32,520 nucleotides of DNA, taken from the IMG/VR virus record IMGVR_UViG_2531839666_000028, one strand, 5' to 3'. Source of the stretch: a virus (lineage: Duplodnaviria; Heunggongvirae; Uroviricota; Caudoviricetes). The position numbers are program-made. This document shows, in pieces, positions 1 to 3,000 of this stretch. Each line of letters begins with the position of its first letter. Position 1 is the first letter of the stretch.

Positions 1-3000
1 GTGAGGTTTTCAACCAAGAAACAGCCTAGGTATAACCCATTCACAAAAAATATAGTATTCACTCTGTTGATTGGCAAAGAAGAGCGAAAGCTTCGGATAA
101 AATATTCCTTTTGCACGTTTACGCAGAATGGGGTAGTGAAGGTAACTCCAAATGTTAGAGTAACTGAGAAGTTTCTCTACATTGAATATGAAAATGGCAA
201 TTTATGTGTAATGTCAGTTCATGACTTCGTAAACGGACATTATATTGATTTAGGAATTCATACAGAAGTGCATTACGTAGGATATACACGTCATCCGCAT
301 CGGCGCCCTGTTGATTTTATTCACCGTGGCTTATCAAAGATGCTGTATAGCGTTTCAAATGACGATAATGATTTTTTTGTTTGTTTTAGTATATTTAATC
401 CAAGGATTATATCTCTGAATAATAAATGTAATATAGTCTTTAATATTTCAAATTCTCTACTGGATGAAATTGATGTTGATAATGAGGGAAGAATTATTGA
501 AAGCTGCTTAATACGTTACTTTGATCCTAAGCTTCAAGATGATGACAAGGAAAGTAAAAGGTCAGATTTAAATAAAATGTTTATGGACTTGGTGGAAAAT
601 AAAAAAATTAAAAAATATACGTTAATTTTCAATATGAAAGGAATAATGAGTATTTCTGCTTTTACTCTAAAGTTGTTCCGCCGAAATTTCATCATTTCTT
701 TGTGTTGGATTTTTCTGATGGCAAGATAAATATTGATAGAGACCAGGATCTGATGACTCAGATGGCATTGTGCATGGGGTATTATAATTATTAATATTTC
801 GCCTGATACCAACTCAAAATCTTTTTTGTCGCATCCATTGTGGATTAATATTCAGAGGTGAGGAGTGTCTGCGGAATTTATATTTTGCAGGATGAGCATA
901 CAATACATGATATAACATCTGTTTTTGGCACAGAGCATATAGTCAGATTATGTTTAGTTCTGTGCCATAGATGGATACTATCTCACCTCTTGGCTAACTC
1001 TCATTACTCAATAACTCCAGCAAATCTGTATATTTTGCGTGATGCCCATTTATTTGGGCAGGATTTAATATCAGGATCTGGAAAATCTGGCCTGTATTTC
1101 TGGCCTGTCCTCCTGTTTACGCTGTTCCAGCGAAGCACCGTCGATATTGAAACGCCACAGAATTCGGCGACTTGTTTTGTTGTCATTAAGTTGCTCATTG
1201 CTACCCCTCCAGCGGTTGTTCAGTTGAAAGACTCATGCGTATGTGCGTAACTCCGATAACTCGTTAAAGCGTTCCATAAACATCCCGTAGGCATGGCCCG
1301 GTGCCAGTGGCATCACGTTGAACATCTCTGTTGCCGGGATACCTTCCAGTACTGGCCAGAAAGAGCCATCATCAAGCCCGAGATCGCGGCGTTCGGTTGC
1401 CAGCATGATGAGATCGGCATATTTCACAGGCGTGCTCATAACCGGGGGTAACCCGTATTTCTCACGGATTACGGCGTCTATTTTTTCTTCCATCCGTTTA
1501 TAGTCAGGAAGAAGGCGTTTCAGTGGAGCGGGAATATCCTGGCAATACGCTTCTGTTGCATCATGCATTAACGCTTCAAAAGCAAATTCCTGCGGCACCA
1601 GCTGGCTGCAAAGCACCGCATGCTGGGCGACACTGTAGAAGTGTGAAAGATGTCCTGCAAAGCGACAGATATTTGAAAGGGAAACTGCGATATCGTTAAT
1701 CACGATGTCGTCTTTATTTATCCTGTCATAATAAAAATGCTTCCCGGAAAAAGTTTTAATAAATGACATTTCGTTCTCCACTTTATATGCGCTGCACCGC
1801 GTTGAATTCTGCTAAAAGGAAGCTCTCACCATCCGGTGATTATTGAGTTAATTACGTTTCCATAAATGCCCCCGCAGGGGCATTTGCAGTAATGAAATCA
1901 GGCGGTGAAAGTACCAATAAAGGTTTCTACTTTGCTGTCTTTGAATTTCTCAACAAGCAGATCACGAAATTCGTTAGCCATTTCTTCCTGCACCGCTTCC
2001 AGCTGAATAATGCGCAGAACCAGTACAGGACGATCGCCAGTGATAATGCTGAGGCGTAATTTAAACGGACGTTCTTTCAGGCCTTCAAACGGAACGCATT
2101 TAAATTCAAATGCCACTGGCATAATGTCTTTGGTTTTCGCTTCGACAGACTCCATCAGAGAGCGTTTGCCGCTGAAGTCATTGTCTTCAAAATCAGCGGT
2201 CTGGTTTGCTTCAATTGTGATTTTACGGACTGCCGCAGCCGCTTTGGTTGCCTGAATGGTGTCACCATTAGCATCAAAGCCCACAAGGTAGTCGGCCCAG
2301 TCTTCAATCCATTCTGCCAGTGACTTCTGGGAGTTACGCTCGCCATTAACAGACAGCAGGGCAGAGAACGGTGCTGTCTTTTTCAGTTTGAGAGTGGCGG
2401 TGTTATCTGCGTGACCTGGTTCATCAATAGTACCTAGGTTAAGCACACTGACGGCTCGCATATTATCGGCATCGATAAAGCAGCGGGTGCCTTCATCTGC
2501 AAGATCTTTAGAATAACGGGTAAAGTCATCGATGCTGGCAGTGGAAAGCGCACCACGGAAACGGAAGCGATTTAAATTAAATTTTTCCAGATCATGAATG
2601 CGGAAATTCTCAGGCAATGCCACAGCATCGGCACCAATCTTACTGATAATTTCATTAACACCCTGAGCAGAAATAAGGGCATGGATTTGATTAATTGCGG
2701 TTGCGTCTAAGTTCTGAGACATAATAAGTCCTCACTATATTAAGATATTCAGTGATGAGATAAATAATCAGTTAATTAAGAACGATATTAATGACCTGCT
2801 GCGCGGAGTTTTCCGTCAGGCTCACCGGCAAGAGTCAGTAATTGTCCCTGGTCTTCCTGCAGAATAGTCAGGCGACCACCGCGATTGACATACATCGGCG
2901 TTTCGGTGGTGTCTTCTTCGGAAATTTTCCCGCGGTTAGTCGGGCGAACATATGAGAGTTTGTGTTTGATTTTCACACGGTTCTCATCAAACGGTTCGAT

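Follow-up and report, generated by a model that had tools for sequence, protein, structure and literature searches.

What does the AT-rich reading frame at the left edge of the virus record IMGVR_UViG_2531839666_000028 encode? The record (Duplodnaviria; Heunggongvirae; Uroviricota; Caudoviricetes) is a 32,520-nt stretch of DNA, hereafter the window, to which all positions refer unless another genome is named, and it represents a lambdoid Stx2-converting prophage. A previous, sequence-only reading of its first 729 nt had proposed an item of laterally acquired cargo, perhaps with an exclusion or defence function. We find that the feature belongs to an accessory ('moron') gene of 1029 nt, of which it covers the 3' three-quarters, and that this gene occupies a variable slot between the integrase gene and an Xis-like gene of a prophage inserted at yjjG/prfC. 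On balance, the best overall reading, to which we assign a probability of about 0.5, is that the gene is a single-gene defence candidate with a divergent GIY-YIG-like core, housed in the int–xis slot of the prophage.

Limits and integrity of the gene

A frame of 242 codons does run without interruption from 1 to 729 on the plus strand, as claimed and as given in the list of open reading frames (ORFs) of the window, and it is coding beyond reasonable doubt: homologues of 320–345 aa, with identities of 28–82%, are present in many bacterial orders. The suspicion that the frame might continue upstream was well founded, and both of the ends previously given for it are artefacts. The GTG with which the window opens encodes an internal Val, and the 3' end is a frameshifted tail; the gene starts 234 nt before the window, as judged from Escherichia coli 2012EL-2448, in which the copy (L001:5767-6795, encoding the hypothetical protein WP_225261446.1) directly follows the tyrosine integrase gene. 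When positions 1–1250 were used as a megablast query, phage PhiR63_1 and 61 complete E. coli genomes proved to contain the region, with identities of 98.7–99.9%, and every one of the alignments spans 1251 nt for the 1250-nt query. The intact gene in these 61 genomes comprises 1029 nt and encodes 342 aa, the protein start (MTRGNF) being fixed by an alignment of 44 sequences. Some records, including that of PhiR63_1, annotate a 377-aa version; we rejected this, as the additional 35 N-terminal residues are not conserved in the same alignment and have a predicted local distance difference test score (pLDDT) below 50.

Base-by-base comparison with the closest genome reveals a single difference within the gene, namely, a run of six A residues at 610–615 of the window (plus strand), where all relatives have seven. 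Alignment to L001:5767-6795 and L002 shows that positions 1–615 (plus strand) correspond to codons 79–283 of the 342, the first 78 codons lying upstream of the window. The window frame is thus correct only as far as its codon 205 (residue 283), and what follows at 616–729 (plus strand) is an out-of-frame tail of 37 missense codons and a stop rather than the true C-terminus. It is frame 3 that encodes the true final 59 residues (IYVNFQ...GYYNY): the genuine C-terminal segment, KIYVNFQYERNN...GYYNY, which includes the conserved residues S301, H310 and F312, extends over 612–794 (plus strand) with its stop at 792–794, and this is why the ORF list contains a separate small ORF at 702–794. All 61 complete E. 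coli genomes that carry the gene have the intact allele, as do 11 IMG/VR contigs. The frameshifted allele, by contrast, occurs in none of those 61 (best identity 99.3%, equivalent to the one gap), and a search of the viral contigs and of 185,579 species-representative genomes gave no exact match to it. The indel at about 609–615 is uncompensated and falls in a homopolymer; it may be due to a sequencing error or, alternatively, to an inactivating mutation private to the window. The structural model described below suggests that loss of the last 59 residues, with S301, H310 and F312, would be damaging, and the window copy, which lacks them, is probably either defective or inactive, or else mis-sequenced. 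In either case, the annotated frame of the window, being both truncated and frameshifted, is unsuitable as a reference sequence for the family.

Roughly a dozen further isolated 1-nt indels distinguish the window from its closest genome (~99.6% identity), at positions 14528, 14840, 15260, 22866, 22944, 22960, 24259, 24295, 25575, 26566 and 26578. Several of these lie close together and compensate one another (+1/+1/+1 or −1/+1), and others interrupt or fall within structural genes, a pattern suggestive of sequencing errors in one or other sequence, or of local reframing of coding stretches.

A low-GC cassette in a variable prophage slot

In the closest genomes, an Stx2b prophage corresponding to the parent element sits between yjjG and prfC. 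The integrase gene of this prophage is present in 700 of 5426 complete E. coli genomes, whereas the cargo gene is found in only 61. When the region was compared by local blastn with five int-sharing prophages (L051–L055), homology stopped ~30 nt past the int stop codon and resumed at ~901–930 of the window, leaving an unmatched 1.37 kb that consists of the cargo gene together with 233 nt upstream and ~105 nt downstream of it. The 3' flank of this swappable cassette lies at 795–915, Stx1a and Stx2c phages matching from 914 onwards. The GC content of the cassette is 0.32, compared with 0.44 for int and 0.475 for yfdR; within the window, the value is 0.336 for 1–500, 0.332 for 501–1000 and ~0.5 elsewhere or, taken another way, 0.324 for 1–794 against 0.522 for 1001–32520. 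The sequence-only reading is therefore borne out as regards the AT-rich composition against a background of ~50% GC, and the sharp homology breakpoints of this discrete, 32%-GC cassette agree with its proposal of lateral acquisition. It was also correct in describing the frame as convergent with the early-left genes: the frame is on the plus strand and the genes that follow are all on the minus strand. Its placement of the frame near the immunity region is imprecise, as the cI-like repressor gene is 3.2 kb away and the integrase/att end of the prophage is the better description.

The same position holds unrelated cassettes in other prophages with conserved flanks. In L052 (5825-6801) it is occupied by genes for two small hypothetical proteins of 150 and 160 aa, in L053 (5909-7150) by that for a hypothetical protein of 413 aa and in L054 (6091-7086) by that for one of 331 aa, none of which has a Pfam or PADLOC match. 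The occupant in L055, from strain NA3664 (6096-7322), is a 408-aa dGTPase that matches the PADLOC dGTPase defence model with an E-value of 3.5e-105; hence, a known defence gene is among the cargo of this slot. The arrangement resembles the variable accessory-gene sites of temperate phages that house anti-phage systems, for example, the P2/P4 hotspots (PMC9122126), in having a fixed position, conserved phage flanks and unrelated low-GC cassettes, some of which are known defences. It differs from those hotspots in its location, which is the int–xis interval of a lambdoid Stx prophage integrated at yjjG/prfC, and in that most of its occupants are uncharacterized. No description of an int–xis slot at yjjG/prfC was found in the literature that we looked through. 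A promoter scan around the gene performed at chance level, with 7 promoter-like sites where 6.8 were expected, and the scan for a terminator there was negative.

A patchily distributed family of stand-alone proteins

The cargo protein has no match in Pfam, NCBIfam or PADLOC; the sole line returned from NCBIfam, to a glutamyl-aminopeptidase, was dismissed as a chance match (E = 0.18). It does match PHROG 7779 over its full length (positions 1–342 of 342, E = 4.6e-245), a group that itself has no functional annotation. We found no paper on the family accessions or the PHROG identifier, in a literature search that was incomplete, such that an earlier description is possible. Homology searches yielded 47 clusters at 90% identity and subsequently 216 clusters at 50% identity. 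Nearly all of the full-length members have 300–345 aa, and there are no fusions. With one genome per species, the family is found in 47 of 185,579 species representatives, from the gamma- and betaproteobacterial orders Enterobacterales, Vibrionales, Oceanospirillales, Pseudomonadales, Pasteurellales and Burkholderiales, and also in the Campylobacterota, Desulfobacterota, Verrucomicrobiota and Acidobacteriota. This patchy spread is the pattern of a horizontally moving accessory gene.

An all-against-all comparison of neighbouring ORFs did not reveal a conserved partner gene: among 11 loci, only one small ORF was shared, by two related loci, and the commonest neighbour family occurred in 6 of 42 loci, at varying distances and in varying orientations. 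Because no partner is conserved, the cargo gene is regarded as a stand-alone unit. The only recurrent neighbourhood seen is a syntenic upstream block of three genes (~456, 488 and 525 aa) in the loci L102, L104 and L116, from Pantoea eucrina, a Providencia sp. and Enterobacter bugandensis, respectively, the family members of which are 32–38% identical to the E. coli protein.

A putative divergent GIY-YIG-like core

AlphaFold2, supplied with the 44-sequence alignment, gave a full-length model of good quality (pLDDT 84, predicted template modelling score 0.82), in which only the spurious N-terminal 35 residues are disordered. The putative nuclease core is central, encompassing residues 146–279 of the 342-aa protein (202–603, plus strand), and is flanked by beta-rich modules. 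The core modelled poorly in isolation, which suggests that it is not an autonomous unit, the flanking beta-strands being needed to complete it.

The most conserved residues of the family are Y170-V-G-x-T174, P177, R180, H186, D202, E245, Y251, F252 and Q257. In the 123 full-length members, the Tyr and Arg expected of a YIG motif are both prevalent, Y170 occurring in 110, the Gly in 114 and R180 in 109, and a Glu followed by an amide residue is likewise in evidence, with E245 in 108 and Q257 in 91. Comparison was made with a set consisting of T4 genes and 36 orthologues of T4 endonuclease II (EndoII), the EndoII sequence being taken from the T4 record, and with I-TevI, for which the sequence used is 100% identical to T-even phage records; a search of protein sequences that started from the catalytic domain of I-TevI recovered just nine near-identical fragments. 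In I-TevI, the roles of Y17, R27, E75 and N90 are well established. The +10 spacing from Y170 to R180 is the same as that from Y17 to R27, and the +15 spacing from E245 to position 260 (consensus N; 71 N and 17 D among the 123) is the same as that from E75 to N90. The complete pentad of Y, R, H, E and Q is found in 88 of the 123 members, and about a dozen divergent members lack Y, R, H and E jointly, a pattern that supports a single functional site. The candidate catalytic codons are located on the plus strand at 274–276 (Y170), 304–306 (R180), 322–324 (H186), 499–501 (E245) and 535–537 (Q257). The earlier statement that the frame shows no recognizable motif therefore holds for the curated hidden Markov model libraries, but not on closer analysis, which uncovers a divergent GIY-YIG-like motif set. 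From these sequence comparisons, homology to GIY-YIG proteins is the more probable interpretation, and we think it rather likely that the core is a true and probably active nuclease of this type in most members.

Ten of the divergent members (P0105, P0117, P0118, P0124, P0140, P0146, P0147, P0159, P0169 and P0176) have lost Y170, R180, H186 and E245 together, but have kept their overall length as well as D202 and the N-terminal KRFIYF...R motif. They may be paralogues that no longer have catalytic activity and that serve another role.

Defence systems beside the family genes

The genomic context of the family was examined in two samples, the first comprising the direct neighbours at ten loci outside E. 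coli. In Robbsia, BrxR and BilABCD lie on one side of the family gene, with Drt3a/Drt3b on the other; in Klebsiella, the neighbours are a type I hsdRMS locus, a gene for a 1005-aa reverse transcriptase and an HNH/ScoMcrA-like gene; and in Salmonella, a C5-methylase, DUF4928 and Vsr set is found within an integrative and conjugative element. Lamassu LmuA/C/B adjoins the gene in Proteus, Olokun OloA/B is 97 nt away on a metagenomic contig, Mokosh MkoA/B is present in an integrative island of Serratia fonticola and CcdAB with a PIN gene adjoins the copy in a metagenome-assembled genome of the Pseudomonadales. The second sample comprised 11 loci from the species scan, most of them picked in the order in which they were listed. 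Their closest ORFs encoding 200 aa or more were searched against PADLOC, and five loci gave matches: Shango SngA; a PDC-M68A/HNH-like gene; Druantia DruE and DruK; a TIR protein (PDC-S35); and Dodola DitA/B, the last a mere 24 nt from the family gene.

Altogether, ~11 of the 21 loci, in diverse genomes, lie beside known or candidate defence systems of at least 10 types, a proportion drawn from a small sample with no formal background model. Many defence systems were originally proposed on this criterion of guilt by association. The guess of a defence function made in the sequence-only reading thus gains support, albeit indirect, from the dGTPase in the same slot and from the approximately half of sampled homologues that are beside defence systems; that the gene has an anti-phage role is, in our estimation, likely, and marginally more so than its kinship with GIY-YIG nucleases.

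Weighing the explanations

If the preferred reading of a single-gene defence nuclease is correct, the product would be a stand-alone 342-aa cytoplasmic protein of an uncharacterized family, the most likely function of which would be single-protein anti-phage defence. The central, divergent GIY-YIG-type core would cut nucleic acid, with Tyr170 of the Y-V-G-x-T motif, Arg180, His186, Glu245 and Gln257 as the candidate core residues, and the beta-rich N- and C-terminal modules packed onto it would provide recognition of a target or trigger. The nearest functional analogue is PD-T4-3/CMoRE, a single-gene defence of E. coli that has an N-terminal GIY-YIG domain and a C-terminal sensor of novel fold for 5-hydroxymethylcytosine and its glucosylated form (5hmC/5ghmC) (PMC12923530). 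Both are built from a sensor and a nuclease, putatively so for the present family, but several features set them apart: the family lacks a match to the PADLOC PD-T4-3 models at E-values up to 1; the nuclease of CMoRE is N-terminal and its sensor C-terminal, whereas the core of the present family occupies the middle of the protein, with a beta-rich module on either side; and the CMoRE motif is 'GIYxY-YIG', whereas the first Tyr is not conserved here. The family is thus not a member of that system.

A number of observations weigh against this reading. The GIY Tyr, expected 10–11 residues before the YIG Tyr, is not conserved: position 159 is G in 40 members, D in 15, N in 14 and Y in only 11, the E. 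coli protein being one of those with Tyr159. The nearest conserved substitute is residue 152 (98 H and 17 Y), which lies 18 residues upstream with a predicted helix between. The GIY-YIG profile PF01541 detects one of 44 members, at an E-value of 0.012 and below the curated threshold, and the consensus core of the family reaches 13.6 bits (E = 0.084), short of the 22.6-bit cut-off, in a match that covers profile positions 14–59 of 78 and is in register with HYVGYT...R. Alignment of the core with T4 EndoII by hhalign extends over 104 columns, in which Y170 is matched to the YIG Tyr, R180 to the Arg, E245 to the catalytic E118 and Q257 to N130, at a probability of 29%; against a 25-sequence EndoII profile the probability is 45%, for the YIG-R segment only, and against I-TevI alone, a 13-column YVG-R match has a non-significant probability of 0.8%. 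Neither a PDB sequence search with the family profile nor a Foldseek search of the PDB gave anything of significance; vestitone reductase, from the former, was set aside as a chance match (E = 1.1), and the kinesins, galectins and spike proteins from the latter as noise. With respect to function, PADLOC-DB v2.0.0 yields no family at E-values up to 1; the Arcobacter, Budviciaceae and Serratia plymuthica loci of the first sample have no recognizable neighbour and about half of the 21 loci lack a recognized defence neighbour; and proximity is circumstantial, mobile islands also carrying non-defence cargo.

The likeness to GIY-YIG proteins could be convergent or spurious, the Y/R/H/E/Q residues forming some other ligand-binding or hydrolytic site, with or without a role in defence. 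We consider this non-nuclease interpretation unlikely. Much the same standing is given to the possibility that the gene is prophage or island cargo of another type, such as a conversion or virulence factor, a regulator or a repair/recombination accessory, whose closeness to defence genes merely reflects shared mobile islands. Its carrier is an Stx2-converting prophage with other conversion genes, and the unaccompanied loci and the absence of a match to any PADLOC model would both fit; yet around half of the loci adjoin bona fide defence systems of many types, often tens to hundreds of bases away, and the same E. coli slot also holds the dGTPase defence gene. A host-specific virulence role in particular is difficult to reconcile with a range of hosts that extends from Arcobacter to Burkholderia to Verrucomicrobia.

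A selfish element, either a free-standing homing-type endonuclease that persists by cutting DNA without its own copy, or the toxin of a toxin–antitoxin or addiction module, appears more improbable still. A GIY-YIG core is a typical feature of the free-standing homing endonucleases of phages, for example, I-TevI and the Seg proteins, and the gene appears as a self-contained cassette with a precise insertion point. In those enzymes, however, an N-terminal GIY-YIG domain is followed by a C-terminal DNA-binding domain, whereas the present core is central and embedded; hhalign comparisons with SegA, SegF, SegG and I-TevII return nothing; and the copies are mostly in bacterial chromosomal islands rather than between conserved phage genes. 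For a toxin, the locus adjoining CcdAB and a PIN gene might be cited, but there is no conserved small partner gene to serve as a potential antitoxin. EndoII itself (DenA; PDB code: 2wsh) is a GIY-YIG nuclease of a different kind, an enzyme of 136 aa with which the phage degrades the cytosine DNA of its host; unlike the present family, it has a proper 'VIY' first motif, and the hhalign probability relating the two is only 29–45%.

Returning to the preferred single-gene defence nuclease, a more specific version of it can be ventured, to which we give somewhat less than even odds. Here, the family would be an unnamed one-protein defence system, with a degenerate GIY-YIG effector that has dispensed with the canonical first Tyr (His/Tyr152 may substitute for it) and, rather than forming an autonomous domain, is gripped on either side by two novel, phage-sensing beta-rich modules, the whole spreading as a 1.4-kb cassette via int–xis slots and chromosomal defence islands across several phyla.

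Other features of the window

The right border of the slot is formed by a 64-aa Xis/AlpA-like ORF at 1004–1198 (minus strand), taken from the ORF list and convergent with the cargo gene. It has weak matches to HTH_17, MerR and HTH_23 (E ~4e-4, under the Pfam cut-offs), and the homologous stretch in L055 and L053 is annotated on the same strand as encoding a helix-turn-helix (HTH)/DNA-binding protein; it most likely encodes the excisionase. The ORF is unannotated in the closest RefSeq record, and PhiR63_1 has a plus-strand ORF annotated over the same stretch; in Stx1a- and Stx2c-converting phages the stretch is ~86% conserved, with nothing annotated there.

The first conserved early-left gene after the slot, at 1233–1781 (minus strand), encodes a yfdR-like HD-domain 5'-deoxynucleotidase, according to the RefSeq annotation of a 99.9%-identical region; it is followed by yfdQ (1898–2722, minus strand) and the cI-like repressor gene (3930–4622, minus strand). 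Between yfdP and the latter, ~780 nt (3151–3930) have no gene annotated in the closest RefSeq record, and the sole annotation of this interval in PhiR63_1 is a 69-aa plus-strand ORF. Further along, two tRNA-Arg genes (12930–13006, anticodon tcg; 13020–13096, anticodon tct) are situated upstream of stxA2 (~13188–14147, inside an ORF at 13119–14147) and stxB2 (14160–14423); the closest genomes annotate these toxin genes as Stx2b.

Implications

If the proposal holds, the int–xis junction of the yjjG/prfC prophage family would be marked out as a cargo slot, one that ~13% of complete E. coli genomes possess; the remaining occupants, including several uncharacterized proteins, are defence candidates of equal merit. 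For the cargo gene itself, the proposal is concrete and cheaply testable, although many such candidates exist. Should it prove to be true, the family would represent a compact, one-gene defence nuclease of 342 residues with an unusual GIY-YIG active site and uncharacterized sensor modules, adding to the catalogue of modification- or trigger-sensing nucleases that are potential tools, as has been proposed for CMoRE. Moreover, the system would be one carried, among other elements, by Stx2-converting prophages of pathogenic E. coli, and would thereby bear on phage therapy and on the dynamics of superinfection in lysogens of Shiga toxin-producing E. coli.

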